Origin: Candidatus Omnitrophota bacterium
GTDB taxonomy: Bacteria > Omnitrophota > Gorgyraeia > Zapsychrales > JANLHA01
Assembly (NCBI GenBank): GCA_963662715.1
Contig: OY759724.1
Span: 3,180,001-3,212,000, forward strand
Reading direction: 5' to 3'
Length of the DNA stretch: 32,000 nt
Of the stretch, positions 1,474 to 21,909 are shown in pieces. The notes beneath the pieces are model-generated. The model was not told the origin of the DNA. It did not search any database and worked only from the letters and a program-made list of their open reading frames with translations. Positions within the stretch are counted from its first letter, which is position 1; every line of letters starts with the position of its first letter. Position numbers and translations under genes: made by a program.

Positions 1474-1495
1474 ATCACCGGGAGAAACGACAGGC

Positions 1496-2542: not shown

Positions 2543-3953
2543 CGGAAACTCCGAAAATAATTAACAACATCAATAAGACATAATAACAAACCGATTTAAC
2601 GGGCCAGGGCAGTTTATAAACGGCCATCAGGTCATGTTTCATATACTGATACATCTGAATACCCAGCAGAACAGCGGAATAGGAAAGCATTTGGACAAAA
2701 AGCGGCCAGCTCGCCGGCACGTCATGCCACTGCCAATTCGTAAACAGGGCTTTCCCCATAAGCACAACCTGCTGAACCGACTGGGCGCGGAAAATCAGCC
2801 AGCCGATACAGACGACATGAAAAAAGAACGCCGTTTCAAAAAAGACCGCGGCCCGGGACCGCCAGGACCTCCCGGCACGATCTTTCTTTGCAATGACCGG
2901 ATCAAGAAGACTTTCCTTCAAGTGATATACGACCAGAATCGTGCCGTGATACACGCCCCAAAAGACAAAAGTCCAGGCAGCGCCGTGCCATAATCCGCCT
3001 AATATCATCGTGACCATAAGATTTCTTAATGTTTTAAGCACACCTTTACGATTGCCTCCCAGAGGAATATAAAGATAGTCCCGTATCCAGGTGGAAAGAC
3101 TGATATGCCACCTCTGCCAGAAATCGCTGGGGTTCCTGGCAAAATAAGGGAGGTTGAAATTGACCATGATTTCAAATCCCATACATTTACACAGCCCGCG
3201 GGCGATATTCGAGTACCCGGCAAAATCACAAAAGATCTGAAAGGCAAAAGCGTATAACCCGATGAGGATTTCGAATCCGTGAGTATATTGCGTCCGGGCA
3301 AAAACCGGGTCGACAATACGGGCCAGATTGTCCGCGACAAAAACTTTTTGAAACAGGCCCCAGAATATCAAATAACATCCTTCGTAAAAAAGCGTGCGGG
3401 AGACGGTTCTCGGCTTTTCGATCTGAGGGAGAAGGTGCCGAGCTCTTTCAATAGGCCCTGCGACCAACTGAGGGAAGAACGCCACAAAAAGGGCGAAGTT
3501 CAATTTATCCCTGGTGGGCTTAATCCTCTCATAATAGATATCAATGGTATAGCTCATGGTCTGAAAGGTGTAAAAAGATATGCCGACGGGCAGGATAATT
3601 TTTAAAGCAGGGCCATGTAAAGGGATATTCAAGACCCTCCCGAAAGCCAAAAAATTCTCCAGGAAGAAATTATAGTATTTAAAAACTCCCAGCAGGGCCA
3701 GATTGACAAAAATGCTGAGGGCTAAATATCGTTTTTTCCCTCTTTTATCCGGGGTTTCACTGATTCTTATCCCGCAAAAATAATCGACAAACGTCGAAAT
3801 CCAGATAAGAGACAAAAACCGCCAGTCCCAGCTTCCGTAAAACCAGTAACTGGCAATGAGCAGCAAAAAGTTTTGTTTTTTATGCGGCGAGCATAAATAA
3901 AGGGCGTAAACAAAGACAAAAAAAACAAAAAATTGATAGGAATTAAATAACAT
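2511..3953 (-). CDS. MBOAT-family membrane-bound O-acyltransferase (AlgI/DltB/PatA-like)
   Basis: 480 aa, polytopic. It has the conserved MBOAT histidine region FWQRWHISLSTWIRDYLYIPLGGNR, a second His in GGLWHGAAW, and the characteristic C-terminal FIYFQF. Confidence 0.9.
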   Translation of the reverse strand: MLFNSYQFFVFFVFVYALYLCSPHKKQNFLLLIASYWFYGSWDWRFLSLIWISTFVDYFCGIRISETPDKRGKKRYLALSIFVNLALLGVFKYYNFFLENFLAFGRVLNIPLHGPALKIILPVGISFYTFQTMSYTIDIYYERIKPTRDKLNFALFVAFFPQLVAGPIERARHLLPQIEKPRTVSRTLFYEGCYLIFWGLFQKVFVADNLARIVDPVFARTQYTHGFEILIGLYAFAFQIFCDFAGYSNIARGLCKCMGFEIMVNFNLPYFARNPSDFWQRWHISLSTWIRDYLYIPLGGNRKGVLKTLRNLMVTMILGGLWHGAAWTFVFWGVYHGTILVVYHLKESLLDPVIAKKDRAGRSWRSRAAVFFETAFFFHVVCIGWLIFRAQSVQQVVLMGKALFTNWQWHDVPASWPLFVQMLSYSAVLLGIQMYQYMKHDLMAVYKLPWPVKSVCYYVLLMLLIIFGVSDAQDFIYFQF

Positions 3954-4204
3954 TTATTTTAGGACATCATCCCCGGGTATATTTCCGCTTTACCTGAAAT
4001 CCGGGAATCTATAAGGAATTGTCATTCAGATATCTTTAATATTAAGATGATCTGAATTTTCGCAAGTAAATTTTATTATTATTGTATCTCTTTTCAATTT
4101 TTTTGCATCTGCTTTTTAAAACATTCGGGTATTCCTTCAATACGGGCCGGTCTCCCCGAGATAATGGGCCTACGGACAAAGATTATCAGGACAAAAGGCT
4201 TAAA

Positions 4205-4549: not shown

Positions 4550-4797
4550 GGGTTTTTTACCTTCAAGCATGTCCAAGGCTCTAAAGCCCGGAGTGACAGG
4601 GGAAACCATCCTTAGCCATTATTGCTTCATTTTTCTGCATTTTGCCCTTCCTGACGGCACGGCTTCAGTATAAACATTTTTCCGAACTAGGCTCATGGTT
4701 CGGGAAAATCACTTGTTTCTGCATATTATGCGACTTTCGAACCAAAAGGAAACAAAGCCCCCCTTGCCAAAACCCGTTCCATGTGATACTATTACAA

Positions 4798-4824
4798 TGA
4801 TAGTATCATTATGATACTATCATA
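4798..4824. promoter_or_regulatory. 27-bp perfect palindrome (13-1-13), candidate operator upstream of fic
   Basis: ATGATAGTATCAT-T-ATGATACTATCAT, ending about 16 nt before the fic start codon. A third half-site-like copy TGATACTAT lies at about 4785-4793. Coordinates are +/-1: my manual count of the printed sequence disagrees by 1 nt with the ORF track in this stretch. Confidence 0.55.
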
Positions 4825-4839
4825 AATAAAGGAATCGAT

Positions 4840-5805
4840 ATGAGACCGCCATATACCATCACAAACGACATCCTGACTCTTTGCACAGAGATCACCATGC
4901 TGTTGGGTAAATACGAGGGATTACAGGCCCCTGTGCCCAAGCCAGAGCTGCGTAAGCATACAAAAATTATCACCATTCAATCGAGCCTGGCTATAGAAGG
5001 GAATACTTTATCCATAGATCAGGTGACAGATATTATTAACCACAAAAGGGTAGCAGGCCCTCAAAAGGATATTCTGGAAGTTAAAAACGCCATTAAGGTT
5101 TATGACATGCTGGATAAGTTTGAGCCGGAAAGCCTTGAGTCATTGTTAAAAGCTCATAAAATTCTTATGGAGGGCCTTATAACGGATGCGGGGAAACTGA
5201 GGGGCGGTAATGTGGGCATCCGGTCAGGGGGAAAAATCGTTCACATGGCTCCGAAATACACGATGGTTCCCCAATTAATGGGTGACCTGTTTACGTTTCT
5301 TAAAGAAGAAACGGATATCCACCCGCTCATCAAATCCAGTGTCTTTCATTATGAGTTTGAGTTCATTCATCCCTTTATGGACGGAAACGGGCGCATAGGG
5401 CGTTTGTGGCAATCCGTGATTTTGTATAATTACCGCAAAATTTTTGAATACATCCCTGTTGAGACTGTCGTCAAACGCCGGCAAATGGAATATTATGACG
5501 CCCTGGCACAATCCAGCAAAAAAGGGAACTCAACCGTATTCATTAAATTTATGCTGGAAACAATCAAAGAAGCCACCCTTGAATTCACAAAGGAACTCAA
5601 ACCCGTTAAGCAATCTACGGACTTAAGGATCGAAACCGCTAAAAATCACTTTAAAAATTCATCATTCTCCCGCAAAGATTATCTACAACTCCATCCGAAT
5701 ATCTCAACCGCCACTGCCAGCCGTGATTTAACCATTGCGGCAGCCAACGGCATCTTGCAGAAGACCGGCACCAAAGCCCAGACGAAATACCTTTTCATTA
5801 CGTAA
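4840..5805 (+). CDS. fic: Fic-family protein (class II, AMPylase-type motif) with a C-terminal HTH-like tail
   Basis: Canonical Fic motif HPFMDGNGRIGR (HxFx[D/E]GNGRxxR). An N-terminal inhibitory-helix motif S-x-x-x-E-G is present in SSLAIEGNT. The C-terminal segment SRKDYLQLHPNISTATASRDLTIAAANGILQKTG resembles a winged-helix/HTH. AAGGA SD upstream. Confidence 0.9.
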   Translation: MRPPYTITNDILTLCTEITMLLGKYEGLQAPVPKPELRKHTKIITIQSSLAIEGNTLSIDQVTDIINHKRVAGPQKDILEVKNAIKVYDMLDKFEPESLESLLKAHKILMEGLITDAGKLRGGNVGIRSGGKIVHMAPKYTMVPQLMGDLFTFLKEETDIHPLIKSSVFHYEFEFIHPFMDGNGRIGRLWQSVILYNYRKIFEYIPVETVVKRRQMEYYDALAQSSKKGNSTVFIKFMLETIKEATLEFTKELKPVKQSTDLRIETAKNHFKNSSFSRKDYLQLHPNISTATASRDLTIAAANGILQKTGTKAQTKYLFIT

Positions 5806-6255: not shown

Positions 6256-6984
6256 TTGTACAAAGGGAAAAGGAATCCTGTCGTGAAGAACATGATTATC
6301 CCTCATAAAACTTTTGTTAGAGAAAAATTGATTTGCGTGCAGTTTGATTCGGTCCATTTACGTTCGTTTGACATTCCGAAATTCCGGGGGTATCTTTCCG
6401 AAAAATATTCCTCTTATAATTTGATCCATAATCATCTTGAAGATAATAGATTGAGATATGCCTATCCCCAGATTCAATTTAAAACCATTAACAATAAACC
6501 TGTTATTATCGGACTCGGGGAAGGGATTGAAATATTAAAGAAAGTATTTCTTGATATTCAGGAATTGAAGATTAATCAGGAGAGACTGCAGATTAATGAA
6601 AAGTCTGTCATGCTGCGGGAATGGAAGCTGGGGCAGACAGAAGAACAGGTAAAGTATCGTTTTATCTCTCCCTGGATGGCGCTGAATCAGGAAAATCATA
6701 AAAAGTATATTCATCTCAGTTGGCATGAAAAACGATCGTTTCTTGAGAGGATTCTCGCCGGGAATCTGAAATCACTGGCGAAAGGATTTCAGTATTTTAT
6801 CCCGGATTTTGATAACCTGCACGTTCAGCTTGATCTTAAGCCGGTAACCCGTAATTTTAAAAATATCAAAATGACCTGCTTTAGCGGGACATTTCAAACA
6901 AATTTTTTCATTCCCGATCACCTCGGCCTGGGCAAACAGGTCGCGCGAGGGTTTGGGGTGGTGGAGAGGTTAAAGGAGAAATGA
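6256..6984 (+). CDS. cas6: CRISPR-associated endoribonuclease Cas6
   Basis: C-terminal glycine-rich loop GLGKQVARGFGVV (GxGxxxxxGxG) typical of Cas6 RAMPs. It is the first gene of the cas operon and ends 3 nt before the next gene. The ORF-track start is TTG 6256; GTG 6283 (AAGGA 8 nt upstream) and ATG 6292 are plausible alternative starts. Confidence 0.8.
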   Translation: MYKGKRNPVVKNMIIPHKTFVREKLICVQFDSVHLRSFDIPKFRGYLSEKYSSYNLIHNHLEDNRLRYAYPQIQFKTINNKPVIIGLGEGIEILKKVFLDIQELKINQERLQINEKSVMLREWKLGQTEEQVKYRFISPWMALNQENHKKYIHLSWHEKRSFLERILAGNLKSLAKGFQYFIPDFDNLHVQLDLKPVTRNFKNIKMTCFSGTFQTNFFIPDHLGLGKQVARGFGVVERLKEK

Positions 6985-6987
6985 AAT

Positions 6988-8496
6988 ATGAGTCTAGCCT
7001 ATAAACTTTGGAGGATCGGGAGCGCATTGAATGAGGAGGATGTTTTTGAATTGATGAATGAGAATTCAAAAATTCCCGATGATCCCAGGTATTTGATGGT
7101 GGATTTTATAATCCAGGATGAAAGTGTTATAGATGTGCAAATCAAAGAGAAAGGCATCAGCAAAGATAAATTGTTTATGACACCTAAACTCGGTGGAGCA
7201 GGGACAGGGATTTATTATTTGTATCCCAACATTATTTTACAGAAGAATATTCCCTCTGAAAAAATTTTTCTATTGAAGAATACTCTATTCAACATAGTTT
7301 GCGTGTTTGCAAATGAGCCGAATAAAAAGCTGGCAGATCTTGTGATTAATCACTTTGAACGTGTTGAGGAGTTATGCTCATCGCATGAAAAAGGCGATTA
7401 TGTTTTTTGTATAACGATCAACGGAAAAACTTTTTGGGAATGTATGCCGGAGGTCTGGGAGAATTGGGTGAAATGTCCTTTTGTCGAAAATAAAAGCCTT
7501 TGCGAAGGACGGGATATCTTTACTAATGAGAGTTGCCGAGTTGGATACCAGCCAGATGTTAAGATTTTTTCTTATGATAATTATCATGATACCCTGAAAT
7601 ATCGTCTGACTAAGAATTATGCATTCTCCGCACAGAGTGCTAGGAACATTCGTTTTGGGTGGATGTTTGTTTGGGAAAATTTATTTTTTTGGTATAAAGG
7701 GCAATCTTACTGTCTTCTTCCTAATCTTATTAATTTTAGCCCGAGTGTTTATAAGGAGATTTTAATGAAATACAAGCAACTTAATAAAAAAGAGAGAGGA
7801 CGAAATGCTACGATTAGTGATTTAAAAAAACAGGAAGACGCTATTAAAAAAAAGTTAAAAAAGGAAAAAAATACGAAGAAAAAGGATGCTCTAAGAATTG
7901 AAGAATTGGAAAAGAGTCTTGAAGAGAAGTCAGCGGCTTTGTTGACATTAGACGTAGGGTTGATAATCAAAAGCCATGATGAGTTGGATAGTCTCTTGGA
8001 ATATCGAAACATGATGACGCTAGATTATTATTTTTTTGATCGTAATCTCACCAACAAATCCTTTCAGATTAAAGGCGCATTGGAAGAAATTTTGCCTAGT
8101 CAGATAAGTCGAGTGGTGAATGCTTTAAGGGAGCATAAAATTGACGAAAATATTACTTATTCCCCGAAAGAGAGAAGTGGTTTTGTAAGTCTTAAGCATT
8201 ATTTTTCTAGAAAAGAAATAGAAATTGTTTATACGAAAGGGTTTTCCGGGAGGAACGATTTCAGCAATACGATTCTTAAAGAACGTATTTATTTGGCTCG
8301 CTTACTTTTGACAGATGAACAAATATCCATAGATAACCTGATGGAGCGGTTTGAGTATCATCGCGAAAAAGACTACGAAGGGCATAAGCGAGTCCACGAT
8401 GGAATTAAGGATTGGCTCCAATATTCTGGCATATATCGCGAATCCGAAGAACGCATTCTTACATTCTTAAAACAGCTTAATAAAATAAAGGAGTAG
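6988..8496 (+). CDS. cas8b: Cascade large subunit (Cas8b-like), divergent
   Basis: Assigned mainly by position (between cas6 and cas7) and size (502 aa). AAGGAG SD. Contains a four-Cys cluster (C152, C163, C172, C183; nt 7441-7536) and a Lys/Glu-rich coiled-coil-like segment (residues 261-319). No sequence motif I can tie firmly to a named Cas8 family. Confidence 0.6.
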   Translation: MSLAYKLWRIGSALNEEDVFELMNENSKIPDDPRYLMVDFIIQDESVIDVQIKEKGISKDKLFMTPKLGGAGTGIYYLYPNIILQKNIPSEKIFLLKNTLFNIVCVFANEPNKKLADLVINHFERVEELCSSHEKGDYVFCITINGKTFWECMPEVWENWVKCPFVENKSLCEGRDIFTNESCRVGYQPDVKIFSYDNYHDTLKYRLTKNYAFSAQSARNIRFGWMFVWENLFFWYKGQSYCLLPNLINFSPSVYKEILMKYKQLNKKERGRNATISDLKKQEDAIKKKLKKEKNTKKKDALRIEELEKSLEEKSAALLTLDVGLIIKSHDELDSLLEYRNMMTLDYYFFDRNLTNKSFQIKGALEEILPSQISRVVNALREHKIDENITYSPKERSGFVSLKHYFSRKEIEIVYTKGFSGRNDFSNTILKERIYLARLLLTDEQISIDNLMERFEYHREKDYEGHKRVHDGIKDWLQYSGIYRESEERILTFLKQLNKIKE

Positions 8497-8501
8497 GGCT
8501 T

Positions 8502-8951
8502 ATGGGAGGGAAAAGCTTTAAAGAAAAATTGGAAGCCCGTATACAGGAAGATACGGCTAATTTTTGGTCTCGTCCGCAAATTCAGAAGGCATATTATTCT
8601 GGGGCTTATTCCAAGGCTATTGTTAATGGTTCATGGACTTCCAAAGTGAGTAAACAAAATGAAACATTTAAAAAGTGGCTTTCTAATCAAATTATTAATG
8701 CCAAAAACCTTGACCGTATATTTGAAATGGCTTTTCGTTTTGAGCAGAAATTAAAAATTCGGGTTCGAAACGATGGTGAAGTTCGTCGTCTTGCCCATGG
8801 AGTTGCTGCGGCTTCTGCGGCTGGGATATCAAGTGCAAAAATTTCATTTGCTTTTGTTGCTGGATTTGATGACTACGGGGTTTTTATAAAAGACAACCCT
8901 GCAGAAAAAAATCAGGATATGGATAACGAAATTAAGGAAGAACATAATTAA
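8502..8951 (+). CDS. cas11: Separately encoded small-subunit-like protein (Cas11-like), 149 aa
   Basis: Assigned by position (between the large subunit and cas7) and size. It has its own AAGGAG (8488-8493) 8 nt upstream of the ATG, embedded in the last codons of the upstream gene. Its reading frame differs from the large subunit. The sequence looks helical (KAYYSGAYSKAIV..., FKKWLSNQIINAKNLDRIFEMAFRFEQKLKI). Confidence 0.45.
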   Translation: MGGKSFKEKLEARIQEDTANFWSRPQIQKAYYSGAYSKAIVNGSWTSKVSKQNETFKKWLSNQIINAKNLDRIFEMAFRFEQKLKIRVRNDGEVRRLAHGVAAASAAGISSAKISFAFVAGFDDYGVFIKDNPAEKNQDMDNEIKEEHN

Positions 8952-8967
8952 CCTTCAGGAGGAATTT

Positions 8968-9885
8968 ATGTCAGAACAAGCTAAACACAGTGAATTGCTT
9001 TTTATTTGGGATGCCAAAACATGCAATCCGAATGGTGATATGTCGGCAGATAATGCTCCTCGTTTTGATGATGTCGATGAAAAGGCTATTGTTAGTGATG
9101 TTAGGGTTAAAAGAACGATTAGGGATGATTTACAAAAAAGGAAAAATGAGCCCATTTTTATTAACAATGATGAAATTTTATCCAAAGGGCTTACGGCTGA
9201 AGCTCGTTTTAAGGAGTTAAAAGATAAATTAAAAGATATTAAAAACGAAAAAGAAGTTTTTCTTTCTTGTATTGATAATAGGCTTTTTGGAGGAGTTGCT
9301 CCTAAAAGTGATATTCAACTTGTGGGGACTGTTCAGTTGGGATGGACTAAATCACTTAACCGTACGGAAACAATTTTAAAATCAGGTACGGGGGCTTTCG
9401 CGACTACTGGGAAGTCTGGAGAAACTAAGTATACGAAAACGTTCCGTGCCGATAATTATATCCCGTATGGACTCTTTGCAATGTATGGAACTGTCAATCG
9501 CCTGCAGGCCGAGAAAGCCAGTACGCAAGAAGAAGATATTAAAAAAATGCTAGATTCCCTTTGGATGGGAACGAAATTATTGAATACACGTAGCAAAGAG
9601 GGACAAAAATCACGTTTGCTGATACGAATTATTTACAAAGCCGAGTCCTTTTTCTTCATTGGGTTGTTGGATGAACTCGTGACCTTAAAAAATGAGGATT
9701 CTTCTCTTCTTAGAGAAATAGATGAGTGTGATATTGATTTTTCAAAATTGGTTGCGGCCATTGATGCGGCTAAGAATCATATTGAAAAGGTTGAGATTGT
9801 TCTCGATGCCTCGATGGAAAAATATCGCGATGTTTTTGGCAATCAGATTTTTTCCATTAAGACTGAGACCGAATTTATACAATAA
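8968..9885 (+). CDS. cas7: Cascade backbone subunit Cas7 (Csh2/Csd2-type, I-B/I-C clade)
   Basis: The N-terminal signature CNPNGDMSADNAPRFDDVDEKAIVSDVRVKRTIRDDL matches the NPNGD...PR.D....SDV.lKR.IRD pattern of the Csh2/Csd2 (CT1132) Cas7 family. GGAGG SD. 305 aa. Confidence 0.9.
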   Translation: MSEQAKHSELLFIWDAKTCNPNGDMSADNAPRFDDVDEKAIVSDVRVKRTIRDDLQKRKNEPIFINNDEILSKGLTAEARFKELKDKLKDIKNEKEVFLSCIDNRLFGGVAPKSDIQLVGTVQLGWTKSLNRTETILKSGTGAFATTGKSGETKYTKTFRADNYIPYGLFAMYGTVNRLQAEKASTQEEDIKKMLDSLWMGTKLLNTRSKEGQKSRLLIRIIYKAESFFFIGLLDELVTLKNEDSSLLREIDECDIDFSKLVAAIDAAKNHIEKVEIVLDASMEKYRDVFGNQIFSIKTETEFIQ

Positions 9886-9899
9886 TAAGGAGCGCGGCT

Positions 9900-10643
9900 A
9901 TGCTTGTTTTTAAAATATGGAGCAGGTTCGGCGTTTTTCGCGATCCACTGACCATCACTCAAAATATTACCTTCCCTTTGCCGCCTAAAACCACAGTAGG
10001 AGGGATGATGGCTGCGGTTTTGGGTATTGATTATAATGATTATTTTCGTGATCCAAATTATTTTTTGTTCGGGTATTCGGTCGTTACTTTGAATCCTATC
10101 AGAAAAAAAAGTTTTGCTCAAAATTATATTGATGATTATACCAAAGGATCTTCAAGAAAACTATCTCAATTGGGGAATGCTTCTAAAAAGTTCCCCGGTG
10201 ATATTGGTAAGCTGGGAGAAAAATTTACAAAGCCTAAACCAATCTTTCGAGAACTTTTGTGTGCTCCCGCATATCTTGTTTTTATTGATGATTATATATA
10301 TATAAAAAAGCTTAGAAAGGCCATAGAGAATCACACAACCGGTTTTGCCCTTTACATGGGGAATTCGGAATTCCCGGCCAATATCAAATTCATTCCTGTT
10401 TTATCCTTCAACCCGGTCAACGATGTCTGTCTCGATTCCTTCACAACCCGGCCAGATCTTCTGGAGTTTGAAGCTAACAAAAGATACACAAATTTACATT
10501 TCGCAACCAGCGTTACAGGTGAACGTGAATACACACAATACCGCAAAATCATTTTCTCCGAAGCCGGAATCCGTCTGAAGAAACCGGTGGAAGCCGTCAA
10601 AATCGTTACGGAAGACAAAACATATGTCTGTGAATTTATCTGA
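9900..10643 (+). CDS. cas5: Cascade subunit Cas5
   Basis: Cas5-type N-terminus (FGVFRDPLTITQNITFPLPPKTTVGGMMAAVLG). 247 aa, AAGGAG SD, directly follows cas7. Confidence 0.85.
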   Translation: MLVFKIWSRFGVFRDPLTITQNITFPLPPKTTVGGMMAAVLGIDYNDYFRDPNYFLFGYSVVTLNPIRKKSFAQNYIDDYTKGSSRKLSQLGNASKKFPGDIGKLGEKFTKPKPIFRELLCAPAYLVFIDDYIYIKKLRKAIENHTTGFALYMGNSEFPANIKFIPVLSFNPVNDVCLDSFTTRPDLLEFEANKRYTNLHFATSVTGEREYTQYRKIIFSEAGIRLKKPVEAVKIVTEDKTYVCEFI

Positions 10644-12849
10644 GTATTGCTCCCATCCAGGTTATCCGTACGAGAAACATATCGGAAACATTGCAGACTC
10701 TTTCCCGGATCCGTTGCATAAGGAAATCGCACATTTTCATGATGCCGGAAAACTTTCTGACAAATTCCAAAATGGTGTCCTGAAGGGAACAACAAAAACA
10801 ACGCACGCACTGGAAGGTGCTTTTGTTTATTTTGCTGACTGCTGCAAACAGAAAAGACCACTTGCGCGTGATGTGTTAACAGCATTTTGGACAATTGCGG
10901 CGCATCATACAGGTCTTGACGATTATCGTAATTTTTGGGAATCTCGGTGCACCGACTATGAGGAGCTTGTTTATGTCTTGTCTGATTTTGAGGAAAATCT
11001 TGCGCAGGTTATGGAAAGACTTTATGGGTTATCGAATTTCCCTGCGGGAAATATATGTGAGTGGTTTGATGAGAATAAGGAACAAATCGCCAAACTTCTT
11101 AAAGAACCTTTCGGGAATTTCTTTATCATTCGCGAGTCGTTCTCCCGTCTGATCTTTGCCGACAGGTATGAGGCTATATTTAAAGAATCTTTTCATGATA
11201 TGAATATGTTGGATACCCCATCGTATAAGGACAAACTTAAGGTGGTATTTGACAAATTCTCAGCAAAAGGTGGAACTCTGACTGAATATAGAAACGCTTT
11301 CCGGGAAACTATTTTGACAAATTATTATAATAGCAAGGGAAAACGTTTTTTCATTGTCGAGGCACCTACTGGAATTGGAAAGACATTGACTGCTTTGGAT
11401 CTGGCATTACATATTACCAAAGACAAAAAAAAGAAACGTATCATCACATCCCTCCCAATGACATCTATCATTGATCAGACTCAGATGGTCTATTCTGAGA
11501 TCCTTGGAGAAGACGCTGTGTTGAAAGATCACTATCTGGCAGATACTAAGAACTATGATGACCACATCGATATTCAAAAAAATGATTTCTTGATGAACAG
11601 TTGGGCAAATGACGGAATTATTGTTACTACATTTAACAGATTGTTTAATGCTCTGTTTTCTGTCAGTAACAGCGACATTTTCAAATTTTGGACTTTACGG
11701 GATAGTGTTGTAATTCTTGATGAGGTACAAACCATCCCGCGCGTGCTTATTCAAGATGTGGCACGGGTTCTGGATGAACTGTCTTTTCTGATGAATATTG
11801 ATTTTATCGTCATGTCGGCTACGGTTCCAGAGATCAAAAGATTCCTGGCCCCGGAAAAAATCGCGGTGCTTTCGAGTGACCGGTTCTTCCAGGATGAGAC
11901 CAACAACCGTTATATCCTTCAATACGATGAAAATATTCCCGATACGGATTCTCTCATCGAAGCTGTGATGCGTGCCTACAGGGGGCATCAGTCCGTCCTG
12001 TGCGTCGTCAATACCAAGAAGACCGCCTTGCAGGTTTATAAGGGTTTGAAAAAATATTTTAGTTCGGAACTGTATCTATTAAGCGGATATTTTTTGCCAT
12101 GCGAGAGAGAAAGAATTCTCAAGGAAATCGGGGAAAAACTCGGAGGCGAAAAGCTTGTCCTTGTTTCAACACAAGTAGTCGAGGCTGGTGTTGATCTGGA
12201 TTTTGATCAGGGCTTCCGCGAATTTGCTCCGTTTTCCAGTATCATTCAAACAGCCGGAAGGATTAACCGGGAAGGTAAAAATGATCCAAGTGAACTAACA
12301 GTTTTTCCCTTAATTACCTCTGGGCCTTACCACAAAATCGATATGTGTGCGGACAAGGTTATCCCTTGGTTAAAACAAGGTTTTCCAGAAAACAAATTAT
12401 TTAATGTGATAAGGCAATATTTTAAGAATATTATTGAGTCTTCCAATCCTGATCCTTTATTGCTTCAGGACATAAAAAATTTAAATTACAAGACAGTCTC
12501 GAACTCCTTCAGAAATAATTTTATGACGGATACCCCTTTTTATGTAAAAGTCTTTGTCGAAATTTGTCCCGGACTGTATGAGCAGTTTGATGAAGAACGA
12601 AAAATGCTTTTAGCCGGATTGAATGATTCGGATGAATTATCGAGAAAAATGAGATGCAAGGTTCGCCTGAGAAAAATGATGAACAAATTATCGAAGTATA
12701 TTATTAACGTATCTAAATTTGATGTCGTGGGTTTAAGCAATTTGTGGGATTTAGACGATTTATATATTTGTTTTTATGATCATTTGACAGATTATTATAA
12801 CGTTGAAAAAGGCTGGAGCGTTTCAGAATCATCTAGTTTAATGTTCTGA
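10624..12849 (+). CDS. cas3: Cas3 nuclease-helicase (fused HD + SF2 helicase)
   Basis: HD-domain motifs are present (EKHIGN, HFHDAGK, THALEG, AAHHTG). Helicase motifs: I APTGIGKT, II VILDEVQ, III SAT, V VSTQVVEAGVDLDFD, VI QTAGRINREG. The start overlaps cas5 by 20 nt. Confidence 0.95.
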   Translation: MSVNLSEYCSHPGYPYEKHIGNIADSFPDPLHKEIAHFHDAGKLSDKFQNGVLKGTTKTTHALEGAFVYFADCCKQKRPLARDVLTAFWTIAAHHTGLDDYRNFWESRCTDYEELVYVLSDFEENLAQVMERLYGLSNFPAGNICEWFDENKEQIAKLLKEPFGNFFIIRESFSRLIFADRYEAIFKESFHDMNMLDTPSYKDKLKVVFDKFSAKGGTLTEYRNAFRETILTNYYNSKGKRFFIVEAPTGIGKTLTALDLALHITKDKKKKRIITSLPMTSIIDQTQMVYSEILGEDAVLKDHYLADTKNYDDHIDIQKNDFLMNSWANDGIIVTTFNRLFNALFSVSNSDIFKFWTLRDSVVILDEVQTIPRVLIQDVARVLDELSFLMNIDFIVMSATVPEIKRFLAPEKIAVLSSDRFFQDETNNRYILQYDENIPDTDSLIEAVMRAYRGHQSVLCVVNTKKTALQVYKGLKKYFSSELYLLSGYFLPCERERILKEIGEKLGGEKLVLVSTQVVEAGVDLDFDQGFREFAPFSSIIQTAGRINREGKNDPSELTVFPLITSGPYHKIDMCADKVIPWLKQGFPENKLFNVIRQYFKNIIESSNPDPLLLQDIKNLNYKTVSNSFRNNFMTDTPFYVKVFVEICPGLYEQFDEERKMLLAGLNDSDELSRKMRCKVRLRKMMNKLSKYIINVSKFDVVGLSNLWDLDDLYICFYDHLTDYYNVEKGWSVSESSSLMF

Positions 12850-12864
12850 TAACAGGGAATATTT

Positions 12865-13848
12865 ATGCAACTCATCCTAAACACATACGGCTCATACCTC
12901 CATCAATCCGATGGGATATTTGAGGTTAAGGTAGATAAGGAGAAGACCCGTATCTCCCCCAAGAAGGTGCAGTCTATAGTTGTCACAACAGGGATTAGTT
13001 TATCATCCGATGCCATGCAGTTGGCGGTTGAAAATAATATTGACGTTTTGTTTATGGACAAGTTCGGTAATCCTTTTGGCCGGGTATGGCATGGGCGTTT
13101 GGGATCAACAGCGCGTATCCGCCGGGCGCAGTTGGAACATGCGGTATCAGAAGGGGGAATTATTATCGGAAAGAAGTTTGTCGAGAAAAAGTTTGATAAT
13201 CAAATTGCGTTTTTGCTTGCGTTGCGTGACCGGCGTACAGCCATGTCGGCAGAAATTACCAAGGTTATCCAGGTGATCAGGGACGCAAAGGAAAAGCTTC
13301 TGCTTGTGAATGGTCCGGTTGACGAGCAGCGGGGAAGCATTATGGGCATAGAAGGACAATCCGGCAGACGGTATTGGGAAATTTTAAGTTTGCTGCTGCC
13401 GGAACGGTTTCGTTTTAACGGCCGCAGCCGTAATCCGGCAGGGGATGAGTTTAATTGTCTTTTAAATTATGCTTACGGAGTTTTGTACGGGATCGTTGAA
13501 CGGGCTTGTGTTTTGGCAGGAATTGATCCTTATGTCGGTTTTATTCATACGGATCATTATGCCAAGACTTCTATGGTTTTTGATGTTATTGAAGGGTATC
13601 GTATTTTTGCGGATGAAACGGTTTTTAATTTGTTCTCACGTAAAAAAGTTAAACAGGCTTTGTTTGACCGCATGCAGAATGGTTTTGTTTTGAACAAAGA
13701 AGGTAAGGCTGTTTTGCTTGCGGATTATAATGTGTATTTGGATGACTGCATTCTTTATAATGGACGCCGTCTGAAAAGACGGGATACGATTCAGTTTGAC
13801 TTGCACAAACTAGCCAACAGCTGGATAAAAACGGATGCCGTTCTTTAG
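12865..13848 (+). CDS. cas1: Cas1 integrase
   Basis: 327 aa with Cas1-type regions EFNCLLNYAYGVLYG and GFIHTDHYAKTSMVFDVIEGYR (conserved E/H/D context). Confidence 0.95.
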   Translation: MQLILNTYGSYLHQSDGIFEVKVDKEKTRISPKKVQSIVVTTGISLSSDAMQLAVENNIDVLFMDKFGNPFGRVWHGRLGSTARIRRAQLEHAVSEGGIIIGKKFVEKKFDNQIAFLLALRDRRTAMSAEITKVIQVIRDAKEKLLLVNGPVDEQRGSIMGIEGQSGRRYWEILSLLLPERFRFNGRSRNPAGDEFNCLLNYAYGVLYGIVERACVLAGIDPYVGFIHTDHYAKTSMVFDVIEGYRIFADETVFNLFSRKKVKQALFDRMQNGFVLNKEGKAVLLADYNVYLDDCILYNGRRLKRRDTIQFDLHKLANSWIKTDAVL

Positions 13849-13876
13849 GGGGCGTGCCCGAGGAAAGACAGATGAG

Positions 13877-14182
13877 ATGAAACCAACAGAAACACTGGTT
13901 TGGGTTATTTATGATATCTGCAGTAATAATATCCGGCGCAAAGTAATCAAAGCGACTGAGGCAACCGGATTGTACCGGGTGCAGAAATCTGTTTTTTTAG
14001 GCACGATTAACCGGGCGGATCTGGATTCTCTGGCGCTTGAGATTGAAGACTTGATTGATGAGGAGAGTGATTCGGTTTATATTTTTCCGATGTGTGAGAC
14101 TGATTTTAAAAAAGTGGTTTTAAAAGGACAGGCTTTTGACAAAAGTCTTGTTACAGATGAGGTGAAAAGTTTGTTTGTCTGA
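13877..14182 (+). CDS. cas2: Cas2
   Basis: Cas2 pattern LVWVIYDI...RRKV...GLYRVQKSVFLG. I prefer ATG 13877 (GAGGAAAG 10 nt upstream) to the ORF-track start 13835, which would add 14 residues overlapping the cas1 3' end. Confidence 0.85.
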   Translation: MKPTETLVWVIYDICSNNIRRKVIKATEATGLYRVQKSVFLGTINRADLDSLALEIEDLIDEESDSVYIFPMCETDFKKVVLKGQAFDKSLVTDEVKSLFV

Positions 14183-14203
14183 TTAAAATAAAAAGGAGAA
14201 GGT

Positions 14204-14809
14204 ATGCTGAAGGTCAGTGATCCGCAACAGCAGGTCATGATAACACCGAGTGAGGTGATCGAATATTTATATTGTCCCCGATTTACATATTATCTGAATG
14301 TCTTAAGAATTGATCAGTACGAAAAAAATCGTTATAAAGTCCAGAAGGGGCGGCGTGTACATGAAGAAAGGCTGAATCATAATAAGAATTATTTAAGAAA
14401 AAAGATTCCTGTTATAAAAAAAGAAACTAATGTTTATCTGGCTGACCCTGTTTTGCGGGTGAGAGGGATTGTTGATGAAGTGCTTTATTTAGAGGATGAG
14501 TCTCTTTCTCCTGTGGATTATAAATTTTCTCCATATAAGGATTTTGTTTTTAAGACGCATAAAGTGCAGATGTGTTTGTATGCTTTACTAATTGAAAAAA
14601 ATTACCAAAAGCCCGTTAAGAAAGGGTATATTGCTTATATCAGAGGGGGGAGTAAAACCTGTGAAGTTGATATTACTGATAAAATGAAGTCGGATGCACG
14701 GGCAATCGTGGATAGTATTCTTGAGATTATTGTGGGCGAAAGATTGCCGGGAAAGACGAAAAACAAGGTGAGATGTATTGACTGTACTTATAAAAATATT
14801 TGTGTTTGA
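14204..14809 (+). CDS. cas4: Cas4 (RecB-like nuclease with 4-Cys cluster)
   Basis: N-terminal Cys (YCPRFTYY) plus C-terminal CIDCTYKNIC (CxxCxxxxxC). RecB-like motifs GIVDEV, PVDYK and VQMCLYAL. AAGGAG SD. 201 aa. Confidence 0.9.
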   Translation: MLKVSDPQQQVMITPSEVIEYLYCPRFTYYLNVLRIDQYEKNRYKVQKGRRVHEERLNHNKNYLRKKIPVIKKETNVYLADPVLRVRGIVDEVLYLEDESLSPVDYKFSPYKDFVFKTHKVQMCLYALLIEKNYQKPVKKGYIAYIRGGSKTCEVDITDKMKSDARAIVDSILEIIVGERLPGKTKNKVRCIDCTYKNICV

Positions 14810-14982
14810 GAATGGTAATGATAGAAGTTGATATATATGAATATGTTGTGGGGAATTAATCGCGGGAATAATGGTGAAAACAGAGCAGAAAAGCTCTTGT
14901 GTCGAGGGGGTTCTTTGATAATTCAATATGATTTTTGCGGAGATGAACATTTTGTGGTATATAAAGTTAGAAGAAATGTGCG
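14810..14982 (+). promoter_or_regulatory. CRISPR leader (173 bp, AT-rich)
   Basis: Lies between the cas4 stop and repeat 1. The opposite end of the array carries the degenerate repeat, so this is the leader end. Confidence 0.65.
14935..14963 (+). promoter_or_regulatory. Putative pre-crRNA promoter within the leader
   Basis: TTGCGG (14935-14940), a 17-nt spacer, then TATATA (14958-14963), 19 nt upstream of repeat 1. Confidence 0.4.
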
Positions 14983-15462
14983 GTCGTCAGTACATATCCA
15001 ACAAAACAAGGATTGAAACAGCAACCGACAAATCAAGCCCGTTGCTTCGTTCTGCGTCGTCAGTACATATCCAACAAAACAAGGATTGAAACGTAATAAC
15101 CGTAAGTAAGTTAGTAATAACCCACCATAAGGTCGTCAGTACATATCCAACAAAACAAGGATTGAAACATCATCTTGGTCACTTCGTCTAATGCAAAGCT
15201 CTGGTCGTCAGTACATATCCAACAAAACAAGGATTGAAACGGAAGTAAACGCTCACAGGGAATTGCTACGCCTAAGGGTCGTCAGTACATATCCAACAAA
15301 ACAAGGATTGAAACATATTAAAATCAACAGAGATATACTCCAAAAACTCTTGTCGTCAGTACATATCCAACAAAACAAGGATTGAAACAAGCACCAAAGA
15401 TTAAACCATGAGATACAAAAGAATCGTCGTCAGTACATATCCAACAAAACAAGGATTGAAAC

Positions 15463-16016
15463 GGCGGGACCCATCCACGGGCTGATATGCCTTCTCTTAG
15501 TCGTCAGTACATATCCAACAAAACAAGGATTGAAACTTTTTCAGAAAAAAAATACCGGCAACCGTTGAGCGGAGTCGTCAGTACATATCCAACAAAACAA
15601 GGATTGAAACACTCATCATACGTCCCCACTAAGTGGAACACATGCGGTCGTCAGTACATATCCAACAAAACAAGGATTGAAACATGTGCGCTGATCCCCA
15701 AGAACCACGCCAGGCAGCAGGTCGTCAGTACATATCCAACAAAACAAGGATTGAAACTAATGAACGCCCTCGGGGAGGAGCCGAAATGAGCATAGTCGTC
15801 AGTACATATCCAACAAAACAAGGATTGAAACTTCATGGGATGACCGCCTGTCACCTGCATTTCTCCTGGTCGTCAGTACATATCCAACAAAACAAGGATT
15901 GAAACTAGTAGCCGTCTGCTTCTTTTGCCTTATATATGCCGGTCGTCAGTACATATCCAACAAAACAAGGATTGAAACCTTCTACAGCTATCAAAGTATC
16001 ACCATTTGTCCAATAA
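15463..16016 (+). repeat. Intra-array duplicated block, copy A (spacers 7-14)
   Basis: Spacers 7-10 (15463-15720) and 13-14 (15906-16016) are identical to spacers 20-23 and 25-26. Spacers 11-12 (15758-15868) are unique to this copy. Confidence 0.95.
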
Positions 16017-16419
16017 GTCGTCAGTACATATCCAACAAAACAAGGATTGAAACAATAGATAATATTTCTATAACATCCGGGATGTTTAAGGGTCGTCAGT
16101 ACATATCCAACAAAACAAGGATTGAAACTTATTCTTTTCAGCATGGAAAAAATATAGCACATTTTGTCGTCAGTACATATCCAACAAAACAAGGATTGAA
16201 ACGAATAAAGAGAGAAACGCAGATACAACTTACATGAGTCGTCAGTACATATCCAACAAAACAAGGATTGAAACGAGAAGGATACGACATTATCGTTGAT
16301 GCCACAAACAGTCGTCAGTACATATCCAACAAAACAAGGATTGAAACCATCATATTAAACATCAGGGGCGTTTCTTAGTTGAGTCGTCAGTACATATCCA
16401 ACAAAACAAGGATTGAAAC

Positions 16420-16898
16420 GGCGGGACCCATCCACGGGCTGATATGCCTTCTCTTAGTCGTCAGTACATATCCAACAAAACAAGGATTGAAACTTTTTCA
16501 GAAAAAAAATACCGGCAACCGTTGAGCGGAGTCGTCAGTACATATCCAACAAAACAAGGATTGAAACACTCATCATACGTCCCCACTAAGTGGAACACAT
16601 GCGGTCGTCAGTACATATCCAACAAAACAAGGATTGAAACATGTGCGCTGATCCCCAAGAACCACGCCAGGCAGCAGGTCGTCAGTACATATCCAACAAA
16701 ACAAGGATTGAAACGCGACAGAACCATTGCTAGAACCAGAACCACCGGAAGTCGTCAGTACATATCCAACAAAACAAGGATTGAAACTAGTAGCCGTCTG
16801 CTTCTTTTGCCTTATATATGCCGGTCGTCAGTACATATCCAACAAAACAAGGATTGAAACCTTCTACAGCTATCAAAGTATCACCATTTGTCCAATAA
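16420..16898 (+). repeat. Intra-array duplicated block, copy B (spacers 20-26)
   Basis: Spacers 20-23 (16420-16677) equal spacers 7-10, and spacers 25-26 (16788-16898) equal spacers 13-14. Spacer 24 (16715-16750) is unique to this copy. The ORF-track peptides from 15487 and 16444 share an identical first ~90 residues, which confirms the identity. Confidence 0.95.
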
Positions 16899-17119
16899 GT
16901 CGTCAGTACATATCCAACAAAACAAGGATTGAAACTAAAACATGTGTCAAGCCTCCTGTGTATTAATTAGACGTCGTCAGTACATATCCAACAAAACAAG
17001 GATTGAAACAAGGCTTATGAAGATCTTAAACGGTCCGGGAAGCTGTGTCGTCAGTACATATCCAACAAAACAAGGATTGAAACCGAAACGAAGAACGACC
17101 AGAAAAAAGATTTTCAAGG

Positions 17120-17156
17120 GTAGTCAGCACATATCCAACAAAACAAGGATTGAAAT
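17120..17156 (+). repeat. Degenerate terminal (trailer-end) repeat
   Basis: GTAGTCAGCACATATCCAACAAAACAAGGATTGAAAT differs from the consensus at positions 3, 9 and 37. Confidence 0.9.
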
Positions 17157-17470: not shown

Positions 17471-17546
<76 letters not shown>

Positions 17547-17560
17547 TCTTTAGTTTTTCA

Positions 17561-17643
17561 GGGCAGATACCCAAGTGGTCAAAGGGGACAGACTGTAAAT
17601 CTGTTGCGGAATCGCTTCGGAGGTTCGAACCCTCCTCTGCCCA
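17561..17643 (+). tRNA. tRNA-Tyr (anticodon GTA), long variable arm, CCA not encoded
   Basis: Acceptor GGGCAGA/TCTGCCC, anticodon arm ACAGA-CTGTAAA-TCTGT, long variable arm, T arm GGAGG-TTCGAAC-CCTCC, discriminator A followed by TTT. Confidence 0.85.
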
Positions 17644-17667
17644 TTTAATTTTGGATTCGACAGCCCT

Positions 17668-17741
17668 GCGAGAGTAGTTCAGTGGTAGAACACAAGCCTT
17701 CCAAGCTTGATACGAGGGTTCGATTCCCTTCTCTCGCTCCA
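17668..17741 (+). tRNA. tRNA-Gly (anticodon TCC), CCA encoded
   Basis: Acceptor GCGAGAG/CTCTCGC, D arm GTTC-AGTGGTA-GAAC, anticodon arm CAAGC-CTTCCAA-GCTTG, T arm GAGGG-TTCGATT-CCCTT. 74 nt. Confidence 0.85.
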
Positions 17742-21831: not shown

Positions 21832-21909
21832 CGGAGCGTAGCGCAGCTGGATGAGCGCACTTGAATGGGGTTCAAGAGGTCGACGGTTCGAATCCGTCCG
21901 CTCCGACCA
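21832..21909 (+). tRNA. tRNA-Pro (anticodon GGG), CCA encoded
   Basis: Acceptor CGGAGCG/CGCTCCG, D arm GCGC-AGCTGGATGA-GCGC, anticodon arm CTTGA-ATGGGGT-TCAAG, T arm GACGG-TTCGAAT-CCGTC, discriminator A. Confidence 0.85.

Follow-up and report, generated by a model that had tools for sequence, protein, structure and literature searches.

The window, a 32,000-nucleotide stretch of contig OY759724.1 from a Candidatus Omnitrophota bacterium, carries nine plus-strand cas genes between positions 6256 and 14809; a 173-nt leader and a CRISPR array of 30 repeats (14983-17156) come next. This is the order described in the sequence-only reading, and all nine open reading frames are present:

6256..6984, + strand: cas6b, crRNA-processing endoribonuclease (Pfam Cas6b_N 100.2 bits, Cas6b_C 134.2 bits)
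6988..8496, + strand: cas8b of the TM1802/Csh1 family, without the C-terminal Cas11-like domain (PADLOC Cas8b PDLC01623, E 7.2e-9)
8502..8951, + strand: putative stand-alone cas11b, small subunit (own ATG; Shine-Dalgarno sequence AAGGAG at 8488-8493, within the last cas8 codons)
8968..9885, + strand: cas7b (Csh2), Cascade backbone (TIGR02590, 216.5 bits; curated cut-off 171.55)
9900..10643, + strand: cas5b (PADLOC Cas5b, 97.9 bits)
10624..12849, + strand: cas3, HD nuclease and helicase fused (PADLOC Cas3b PDLC01759, 448 bits)
12865..13848, + strand: cas1 (TIGR00287, 283.7 bits; PADLOC Cas1b PDLC02066, 436.6 bits, full length)
13835..14182, + strand: cas2 (Pfam CRISPR_Cas2, 71.9 bits; PADLOC Cas2b, 132.2 bits)
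14204..14809, + strand: cas4, RecB-like nuclease with four cysteines (TIGR00372, 121.8 bits; PADLOC Cas4b, 254 bits)
14810..14982, + strand: leader, AT-rich and non-coding, 173 nt from cas4 to the first repeat, with the degenerate repeat at the opposite end of the array
14983..17156, + strand: CRISPR array, 30 repeats (37 nt each) with 29 spacers, 23 of them unique

[quoted passage not shown] Cas6 scores 254 and 234 bits with the PADLOC Cas6 and Cas6b profiles, and Cas7, which reaches 163 bits with Pfam Cas_Cas7 and is 67-75% identical across the main clade, gives 85.7 bits with the Csd2 model, under the cut-off of 182.25. The best NCBIfam match of Cas5 is TIGR02592, at 69 bits, below its 97-bit cut-off. 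The Cas3b, Cas1b, Cas2b and Cas4b matches are nearly full length, that of Cas3b pairing residues 7-737 with profile positions 2-707 of 711. Cas3 also matches the TIGR01587 helicase core (159.8 bits) and an HD model (33.2 bits, residues 35-182), and its HD, Walker A (GIGKT) and DEVQ motifs can be read in the translation, as can C24 and the C-terminal C-x2-C-x5-C of Cas4. Two of the listed starts, each taken from the longest open reading frame, are probably too early: cas6, for which alignments with homologues set in at residue 20-30, probably starts at GTG 6283 or ATG 6292, and cas2 probably at ATG 13877, behind GAGGAAAG.

Thirty copies of the 37-nt repeat, GTCGTCAGTACATATCCAACAAAACAAGGATTGAAAC, lie in 14983-17156, where none is expected by chance; 29 of them are exact and the final one carries 3 mismatches. 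The 3' terminus of the repeat is ATTGAAAC, the expected 8-nt 5' handle, and the 3' half of the repeat (ATCCA..AACAAGGATTGAAAC) is common to the arrays of related Cas6b-bearing loci. The 29 spacers measure 35-39 nt. The array had been called long, which holds for its 30 repeats, but six of the 29 spacers are internal duplicates (7-10 equal 20-23, and 13-14 equal 25-26), which leaves 23 unique. None of the spacers tried yielded a protospacer, and activity of the system is therefore something we infer.

The one unusual feature of the locus is that the Cas11 small subunit, as we identify it here, has its own gene. The 502-aa large subunit is assigned to the Cas8b/TM1802 (Csh1) family: PF09484 is present in its homologues, which go by the names TM1802 family or Csh1. 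In these short Cas8 proteins the PF09484 match ends at position 468-471 of 602. The AF2 model of Cas8 has a pLDDT of 90.2, and its top Foldseek match is the type I-C Cas8c 8dfs_I (E 1.2e-5). The downstream 149-aa protein alone has no match among the Pfam, NCBIfam or PADLOC models, including those of Cas11, Csa5, Cse2, Csm2 and Cmr5, and PF09484 does not detect it even at E up to 10, divergent members having been tested. It is basic (pI 9.4), and its AF2 model (pLDDT 81.5) is all-alpha, with six helices. In size, helical content and charge the protein fits a small subunit, although Foldseek with this model retrieved no solved Cas11 (best E 2.0).

Homologues of the 149-aa protein form at least 162 protein clusters; the 120 listed are all 134-156 aa long, and wherever a source names a member the name is "hypothetical protein". 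An exhaustive HMMER search over 1.84 billion representatives returned small stand-alone proteins and no fusion, with the exception of a weak, multi-stretch match to a 2021-aa protein, which we take to be a chance hit. The GTDB loci fetched number 25 and represent at least 12 phyla; in every one the small gene adjoins its cas8 and/or cas7, and the order cas8, small gene, cas7, cas5, cas3 is complete wherever the contig reaches far enough. The same split is found in Desulfocicer vacuolatum, Campylobacter concisus, Kuenenia stuttgartiensis and the closest metagenomic relative, and the Shine-Dalgarno sequence and ATG at the junction are conserved among related loci. The mean column identity of the small reading frame is 66%, and across phyla the small protein is 54-66% identical, versus 35-41% for Cas8 and 39-42% for Cas3.

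Joining each Cas8 to its small protein shows, at the level of sequence profiles, that the latter corresponds to the C-terminal ~130 positions of canonical Cas8b. In four of the five matching concatenates the PF09484 match reaches position 599-600 of 602; in the fifth (L020) it is broken into two stretches. The joined protein scored higher in all five cases (60.5 versus 39.5, 39.0 versus 31.9, 32.0 versus 25.6, 37.9 versus 33.8 and 58.9 versus 43.3 bits), the comparison being the reversed small protein in four loci and, for Desulfocicer, the Cas8 alone of a close homologue. The PADLOC profile PDLC01623, an independent model, behaves likewise (77.1 versus 45.5 and 70.9 versus 65.9 bits), with matches that reach 541-542 of 544. 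Across the two profiles the gain relative to reversed controls is +4 to +32 bits; within the main clade it is modest, +4 to +7 bits, and only the Campylobacterota branch gives a large increase. The window's own joined pair matches neither PF09484 nor PDLC01623, so that for this locus it is the homologues that supply the profile evidence. When three canonical Cas8b sequences were searched with HMMs built from the small family, no match exceeded the shuffled controls, and hhalign against the Deferribacter Cas8b placed the family in the right region (477-599 of 628) at an E of only 0.31.

In a MAFFT alignment, the end of the window's Cas8 (FLKQLNKIKE) and the beginning of the small protein (MGGKSFKEKLE) align with FLEELEILNKEVKP and MQENSKFNEIFEK of Deferribacter, and the remainder is colinear to the end. 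At this point the uninterrupted Deferribacter cas8b has AAGGAGGT, 7 nt and an ATG with 153 aa left, and the Thermus brockianus cas8b has an internal GGAGG and ATG with 142 aa left. The window reads AAGGAG, TAG, 5 nt and ATG, followed by 149 aa. Because the stop codon stands between the Shine-Dalgarno sequence and the ATG, at the internal start of the Deferribacter and Thermus genes, and because the joined proteins carry the profile matches to their end, we conclude that cas8b was probably split at the Cas11b start and that the 149-aa gene represents its former C-terminal domain, now a stand-alone cas11b; we give this reading a probability of about 85%.

The sequence-only reading had proposed either an undescribed I-B-derived variant or a hybrid. 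A true hybrid or new subtype would be an I-B backbone that recruited csa5 from I-A, cse2 from I-E or a type III cas11, and separate small-subunit genes are indeed the rule in I-A, I-E and type III (PMC11899642; PMC6079278 Table 1), while the small protein alone matches no I-B model. It is equally unmatched by the Pfam and PADLOC models of Csa5, Cse2, Csm2 and Cmr5 at E up to 1, it extends the match to the Cas8b profile colinearly up to the last positions, its junction coincides with the internal start of canonical cas8b and all other genes are I-B, which makes such recruitment very improbable. We reject the hybrid architecture, as no part of the locus comes from I-A, I-E or I-C, and with it the import of the small gene from another subtype, since that gene appears to be the C-terminal part of cas8b cut at the internal Cas11b start. 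The I-B variant and the separate small-subunit-like gene stand, and the literature searched reports no stand-alone cas11 in I-B, so the split-cas8b arrangement is apparently undescribed. Other expectations of that reading were also borne out: Cas7, Cas5 and Cas6 score best on I-B profiles, the large subunit is weak against existing profiles and the small one has none, and the arrangement recurs in a coherent clade. The cas1-cas2-cas4 order is not diagnostic of a subtype. Shared with the closest relative and Cloacimonadota, it gives way to cas4-cas1-cas2 in Kuenenia and cas4-cas2-cas1 in Campylobacter concisus, and in Desulfobacterales cas1-cas2 lies upstream and cas4 downstream; being variable within the clade, the position of the adaptation genes carries no weight.

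The 149-aa product might instead be an accessory or regulatory protein (a regulator, a chaperone or an extra DNA-binding factor) rather than a Cascade subunit, the truncated Cas8b working without Cas11. Its lack of a structural match to solved Cas11 and of any stand-alone profile match would agree with this, as would a conservation unusually high for Cas11. We nevertheless consider it unlikely, because the position between cas8 and cas7 is fixed in every locus covering both sides, the Shine-Dalgarno sequence lies inside the end of cas8, the protein suits a small subunit in size, helices and charge, the anchored profile matches equate it with the C-terminal domain of Cas8b, and the Tma and Hfx I-B Cascades require Cas11b (PMC13199841; PMC11899642). 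Still less probable is recoding, in which read-through or frameshifting past the stop would also yield a full-length Cas8b with its C-terminal domain. Of the 12 pairs examined, from the window and 11 related loci, five share a frame, with the stop and 0-3 codons in between, but the frames differ in the window, L017, L021, L022, L025 and L028 (+4/+5 nt gap or 4-nt overlap), so that no single recoding mechanism would be conserved, and five or six in-frame pairs of 12 do not clearly exceed the one-third expected by chance. Only 5 nt separate the two frames, as a nonsense or frameshift mutation in a decaying system, or an assembly error, might leave them. This last reading is already refuted by conservation: the split recurs in each of the 25 related loci fetched that span the junction and is spread over the clusters counted above, the small frame is strongly conserved, its start signals are conserved as well, and the remaining genes are all intact.

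Canonical I-B (I-B1) systems, exemplified by the Thermotoga maritima TM1802 locus, Haloferax volcanii, Clostridium thermocellum, Methanococcus maripaludis and Deferribacter desulfuricans pDF308, share with the window Cas6/Cas6b, a TM1802/Csh1-family Cas8b, Cas7/Csh2, Cas5b, fused HD-helicase Cas3, Cas4, Cas1, Cas2, a repeat ending in ..TTGAAAC and a Cas11b-sized product starting at a Shine-Dalgarno sequence and ATG ~140-150 codons before the end of the cas8b coding region. In these systems Cas11b is documented to be translated internally (bioRxiv 10.1101/2020.04.18.045682; PMC11096372; PMC11899642; PMC13199841) from an uninterrupted cas8b, whose full-length product keeps a covalent Cas11-like C-terminal domain (PMC13199841; PMC11899642; bioRxiv 10.1101/2020.04.18.045682), whereas in the window a stop intervenes, Cas8b ends at ~470 of the 602 Pfam positions and Cas11b would exist as a free protein only. 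A small-subunit gene adjoining that of the large subunit recalls I-A (Cas8a with Csa5/Cas11a) and I-E (Cse1 with Cse2/Cas11e), but the small protein has no sequence relation to Csa5 or Cse2, cas3 is unsplit, unlike in I-A, and cas4 and a Csh2-type Cas7 are present, unlike in I-E. I-C and I-D likewise derive their internally translated Cas11c and Cas11d from the 3' end of the large-subunit coding region, and the Cas8 model is structurally nearest Cas8c; both, however, retain a single large-subunit gene, I-C lacks cas6 and uses Cas5c, I-D has Cas10d, and the Cas7 of the window reaches the I-C model Csd2 only below cut-off.

Based on these observations, we propose an origin and working for the split system. 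In canonical I-B, one cas8b gives full-length Cas8b and several copies of Cas11b, the latter from an internal Shine-Dalgarno sequence and ATG ~140-150 codons upstream of the stop. In the lineage of the window, a stop arising right after the Shine-Dalgarno sequence would have produced adjacent genes for a 502-aa Cas8b without the C-terminal domain and a 149-aa Cas11b, the Shine-Dalgarno sequence of cas11b being encoded by the final cas8b codons (..AAG GAG TAG ggctt ATG). Cas6b would cleave the 37-nt repeats to leave the 5' handle, and the crRNA would be assembled with Cas5b, about seven Cas7b and Cas6b, an assembly and stoichiometry that we infer. Cas8b would read the PAM, several free Cas11b copies may make up the "belly" along which the displaced DNA strand is held, degradation of the target would fall to the fused HD-helicase Cas3, and Cas1, Cas2 and Cas4 would add spacers beside the leader. 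Cas11, which elsewhere in I-B comes from a hidden start within the large-subunit gene, would thus have a gene of its own here, in an arrangement that recurs in many bacterial phyla.

The locus comprises nine close-packed open reading frames on the + strand, followed by a leader and a CRISPR array, and the sequence-only reading had described this gene set correctly; reading frames and repeats were recovered at 6256-17156.

6256-14809, + strand: nine reading frames in the order cas6, cas8 (502 aa), a 149-aa gene, cas7, cas5, cas3, cas1, cas2, cas4
6988-8496, + strand: cas8
8502-8951, + strand: the 149-aa gene, a putative stand-alone cas11b
14810-14982: leader region between cas4 and the array, a 173-nt non-coding stretch
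14983-17156: CRISPR array of thirty 37-nt repeats, 29 of them identical and the last with three mismatches (chance expectation, none)

The stretch beside cas4 is taken as the leader because the degenerate repeat sits at the far end of the array. Both cas6 and cas2 are present, with probable starts other than those first listed: GTG 6283 or ATG 6292 is more likely for cas6, and ATG 13877, behind GAGGAAAG, for cas2. The 29 spacers (35-39 nt) are likewise present, but six of them are internal duplicates, leaving 23 unique: spacers 7-10 recur as 20-23 (15463-15720 vs 16420-16677) and spacers 13-14 as 25-26 (15906-16016 vs 16788-16898). This duplication in blocks suggests that the copies arose by recombination between repeats and were not acquired independently. 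No protospacer match was obtained for the array in GenBank phages, nor for three spacers in IMG/VR. Activity of the system is plausible, given intact genes throughout, 29 perfect repeats and its conservation.

Seven of the nine proteins are readily recognized, each with an I-B model as its best match. The family membership of the proteins, the gene content and the motifs, which are intact as the sequence-only reading had called them, are all seen in the window.

Profile matches of the seven readily recognized proteins
Cas6: Pfam Cas6b_N and Cas6b_C, 100 and 134 bits
Cas7: Csh2 TIGR02590, 216.5 bits (cut-off 171.55)
Cas5: PADLOC Cas5b best, 97.9 bits; TIGR02592 at 69 bits, under its 97-bit cut-off
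Cas3: PADLOC Cas3b, 448 bits over residues 7-737, nearly full length, with HD and helicase in one protein
Cas1: PADLOC Cas1b, 437 bits
Cas2: PADLOC Cas2b, 132 bits
Cas4: PADLOC Cas4b, 254 bits

The 502-aa protein matches PADLOC Cas8b PDLC01623 (E 7.2e-9) and has no Pfam or NCBIfam match of its own, PF09484 and TIGR02556 not being reached; PF09484 is present in its homologues, for which the names given are 'TM1802 family CRISPR-associated protein' or 'Csh1'. Its AlphaFold2 (AF2) model (pLDDT 90.2) is closest in Foldseek to the type I-C Cas8c 8dfs_I (E 1.2e-5). The model also contains a long, confidently predicted K/E-rich helical hairpin at residues ~252-321 (helices 252-294 and 301-321). Cas8 is shorter in Campylobacter (462 aa) and longer in other relatives (546-595 aa), reflecting variable insertions in the family.

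The locus thus displays a Cas8b signature, a Csh2-family Cas7 with Cas5b, a separate cas6, a single fused HD-helicase cas3, and cas4, cas1 and cas2, and it departs from the textbook description of I-B in having a separate 149-aa gene after a truncated cas8b. The lack of a stand-alone cas11 is a descriptive trait and not a signature gene, and the locus is therefore kept in I-B as a variant; on these profile matches we assign the system to subtype I-B, from which it differs in that one trait. The sequence-only reading had also offered a hybrid architecture. Separate small subunits do occur in I-A, as Csa5 with Cas8a, and in I-E, as Cse2 with Cse1. However, I-A has split cas3'/cas3'', whereas the window cas3 is fused and neither Csa5 nor Cas8a is matched; I-E has Cas7e, Cas5e and Cas6e and no cas4, whereas the window has cas4 and a Csh2-type Cas7 and matches neither Cse1 nor Cse2. 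A hybrid with I-A or I-E is rejected on these grounds, all recognizable proteins matching I-B best. Type I-C, with Cas8c and Cas7/Csd2, lacks cas6, whereas the window has cas6b and reaches only 85.7 bits with Csd2 against a cut-off of 182.25. Across Pfam, NCBIfam and PADLOC, no part of the locus indicates I-A, I-E, I-C or I-G.

What distinguishes the system as a variant of I-B is the 149-aa gene, whose product is without a match in Pfam, NCBIfam or PADLOC. Among 5.8 billion protein clusters searched, at least 162 are relatives; the 120 listed are 134-156 aa long, and 'hypothetical protein' is the only name that any source gives. Mean column identity across 28 diverse members is 66%. HMMER, run exhaustively over 1.84 billion representatives, found only small stand-alone proteins, none of them fused to a larger protein; a single long match (2021 aa, E 1.8e-5, in eight stretches) looks like chance. 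Scanning one genome per GTDB species yielded 25 related loci, hosted by Ignavibacteria, Thermodesulfobacteriota including Desulfobacterales, Spirochaetales, Cloacimonadota, Victivallales, SAR324, Neomarinimicrobiota, Thermotogota, Sumerlaeota, Bacteroidota (Crocinitomix) and Campylobacterota. When the nine window proteins were mapped onto these loci, the small gene adjoined cas8 and/or cas7 in all 25 and lay between them in each locus spanning both sides, and the series cas8, 149-aa gene, cas7, cas5, cas3 was complete in each of the 25 whose contig extends that far. The split is also found in the cultured organisms Desulfocicer vacuolatum DSM 3385, Campylobacter concisus (CP049232.1) and Kuenenia stuttgartiensis. 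Pseudogene formation or assembly error as the origin of the split was considered and rejected, as was programmed read-through of the stop. Compared with loci L003-L027, which carry the same split, the putative Cas11b at 8502-8951 ranks second in conservation across phyla among the effector proteins: identities to the window in the main clade are 67-75% for Cas7, 54-66% for Cas11b, 40-45% for Cas5, 35-41% for Cas8 and 39-42% for Cas3. Small subunits normally diverge fast, and conservation this high is unusual.

Evidence for the identity of the small protein comes from joining it in silico to its Cas8. For the short Cas8 of Campylobacter, Desulfobacula and Thermodesulfobacteriota, the PF09484 match ends at position 468-471 of 602; with the small protein attached, it reaches 599-600 in four of five matching concatenates and is split into two stretches in the fifth (locus L020). 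Each of the five outscores its comparison, which was the same Cas8 followed by the reversed small protein at four loci and, for Desulfocicer, the Cas8 alone of a close homologue: 60.5 vs 39.5 (Campylobacteraceae), 39.0 vs 31.9, 32.0 vs 25.6, 37.9 vs 33.8 and 58.9 vs 43.3 bits. The PADLOC Cas8b profile PDLC01623 behaves in the same way (77.1 vs 45.5 and 70.9 vs 65.9 bits against controls), its match extending to position 541-542 of 544, and the advantage of joining over controls is +4 to +32 bits across both profiles. When joined pairs were aligned by MAFFT with two uninterrupted Cas8b, the small protein beyond the junction is colinear with the canonical C-termini; the junction reads ..ILTFLKQLNKIKE / MGGKSFKEKLE.. 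in the window and ..VRFLEELEILNKEVKP / MQENSKFNEIFEK.. in Deferribacter desulfuricans.

The same correspondence is seen in the DNA. In Deferribacter cas8b, AAGGAGGT stands seven bases ahead of an internal ATG at the junction, with 153 codons remaining, and in that of Thermus brockianus GGAGG precedes an internal ATG with 142 codons remaining; such internal translation of Cas11b has been described for I-B (bioRxiv 10.1101/2020.04.18.045682; PMC11096372; PMC11899642; PMC13199841). In the window the sequence is AAG GAG TAG ggctt ATG with 149 codons after it, and a Shine-Dalgarno (SD) sequence within the last cas8 codons is kept across the clade. Canonical I-B shares the arrangement of the Cas11b start, and only the window lineage has a stop that ends Cas8b just before it. 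The profile extension, anchored by Cas8, together with the junction and SD correspondence, indirectly supports homology to the C-terminal domain of the large subunit. The protein further has the size (about 100-150 aa), position beside the large subunit, fold and charge of a Cas11: its AF2 model (pLDDT 81.5) is all-alpha with six helices, and its pI is 9.4 (family median 9.1), in keeping with the characterization of small subunits as all-alpha and basic (Makarova et al. 2011, PMC3150331). We consider it very probable that the 149-aa protein is Cas11b, a cut-off C-terminal part of Cas8b.

Taken on its own, the small protein gave no such signal. Its profile found no solved structure by sequence, the best matches being at chance level, and Foldseek of its AF2 model against the PDB returned 37 matches, none of them a Cas11 (best E 2.0), so similarity to a solved Cas11 structure was not seen there; this null is a weak negative because small helical bundles are hard for the method. 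Ten divergent members, each run through Pfam by itself with E allowed up to 10, did not match PF09484. Narrow and broadened family HMMs, run with filters off against the Deferribacter, Thermus and Haloferax Cas8b and 600 shuffles, scored the real sequences no higher than the shuffles. Alignment of the family to single canonical Cas8b with hhalign gave E 0.3-0.6 and was long and colinear only for Deferribacter, in which the right region was found at E 0.31. In the search for canonical Cas8b sequences from which to build a C-terminal profile, a word-indexed protein search gave solely the same split clade, tblastn of the Deferribacter Cas8b against plasmids gave only itself, and a metagenome scan found nothing. 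These negatives for the small protein alone are unsurprising, since small subunits of different subtypes lack sequence similarity (PMC11899642). The window's own joined pair matched neither PF09484 nor PADLOC Cas8b; the PADLOC match of its Cas8 alone is lost at E up to 0.01 whether the small protein is joined forward or reversed, probably an effect of HMMER filters or bias correction. As the pair misses both Cas8b profiles, the case for Cas11b in the window rests on clear homology to the relatives that match (tblastn E 2e-22 to 7e-57).

The gene order that the sequence-only reading had stressed as distinctive does not characterize the lineage, for the adaptation genes shift position within the clade.

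Placement of the adaptation genes in loci with the split
Kuenenia: cas4-cas1-cas2 after cas3, the textbook I-B order
C. concisus: cas4-cas2-cas1
Desulfobacterales and others: cas1-cas2 upstream of cas6, cas4 after cas3
L032 (closest relative, metagenomic), one Cloacimonadota and one Spirochaetales genome: cas1-cas2-cas4 downstream, as in the window

The processing module varies as well: in the main clade Cas6b is paired with 37-nt repeats sharing ATCCA..AACAAGGATTGAAAC, and in the Campylobacterota branch a classical Cas6 goes with 30-nt repeats resembling canonical I-B. Locus L006 (metagenome-assembled genome JBLIRR010000047.1) combines cas8-cas11-cas7-cas5-cas3 with a 30-nt repeat of canonical type and a Cas1 that is distant (21% identity), and a Cas6b was not detected there; adaptation and processing modules have therefore been exchanged around the effector module. 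What stays constant in the lineage is the split of the large subunit; the gene order does not. Between cas6 and cas8, L032 has an extra 109-aa DUF3024 reading frame (3709-4038) and the Kuenenia locus L033 an extra 69-aa one (8135-8344), both absent from the window.

Several features of the surroundings deserve mention. A Fic-domain gene lies just upstream of cas6 (4840-5805), directly preceded by a 14-nt tandem repeat (4784-4823; TGATACTATCATTA, 2.9 copies), and in L032 a 485-aa SLFN/AlbA_2 - HATPase_c_4 - Fic-like_C gene (10182-11639) is inserted between cas3 and cas1; Fic-related genes may be recurrently linked with this I-B lineage, or this may be coincidence. Genes for tRNA-Thr(tgt), tRNA-Tyr(gta) and tRNA-Gly(tcc) occupy 17471-17741, ~315 nt past the last repeat, and tRNA-Pro(ggg) lies at 21832-21909. 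The G+C content is about 0.45-0.50 in the flanks vs 0.35-0.40 in the cas genes, consistent with horizontal acquisition of the locus beside a tRNA cluster. At 814-3953, a GDSL-like acylhydrolase (+) adjoins a DUF1574 protein (-) and an MBOAT acyltransferase (-), a set resembling a polysaccharide O-acetylation cluster and unrelated to the CRISPR finding.

Drawing on what is known of type I systems, we propose the following working for this variant. Cas6b would cut inside the repeat to leave an 8-nt ATTGAAAC handle on a crRNA of ~73 nt, on which Cas5b, about seven Cas7b and Cas6b would assemble. The truncated Cas8b would sit at the Cas5 end and read the PAM, and several free Cas11b, translated from their own start behind the SD embedded in cas8b, would form a minor filament that stabilizes the R-loop. 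Recruitment of Cas3 would then lead to target degradation, and Cas1-Cas2 with Cas4 would insert new spacers on the leader side of the array. What is new with respect to canonical I-B is a large subunit without a tethered Cas11-like domain. As a joint reading, to which we assign a probability of about 0.45, this would be a natural I-B lineage, spread horizontally over at least 12 phyla, in which the large subunit lacks a covalent Cas11-like domain and the minor filament consists wholly of free, unusually conserved Cas11b; the split would not be cosmetic, and the variant would be absent from descriptions and current Cas profile sets.

Published accounts give I-B as having no stand-alone cas11 gene (PMC11899642; PMC13199841; PMC6079278, Table 1; bioRxiv 10.1101/2020.04.18.045682), and a split I-B is not described in the literature searched for Cas8b and Cas11, at title and abstract level and outside the Makarova 2020 classification. 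There may be an earlier mention elsewhere, as the variant has been in public genomes for years. For annotation, a conserved, putative Cascade subunit is now a 'hypothetical protein' covered by no Pfam, NCBIfam or PADLOC model, and with a profile for it the annotation of I-B would become complete in Campylobacter concisus, C. showae, Desulfobacterales, Kuenenia and many metagenome-assembled genomes. I-B systems are under development for genome editing. In two recent I-B studies, Cas11b had to be added on an artificial gene of its own (PMC11096372; PMC13199841); a natural I-B that already encodes cas8b and cas11b separately sidesteps this need, is convenient for reconstitution and allows the necessity of the tethered domain to be tested. 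The understanding of type I interference is unchanged by the split. The fused C-terminal domain has been proposed as the nucleation point of the belly in I-B, I-C and I-D, and it would be dispensable if the joint reading is true. Whether separate small-subunit genes represent a reversion of fused genes, or several fusions occurred, is unsettled (McBride et al.). The lineage shows how a single step, a stop codon between SD and ATG, can lead from 'internal start' to 'two genes', and, should the joint reading hold, it would be a living intermediate bearing on whether fission of fused large subunits gave rise to separate cas11 genes.
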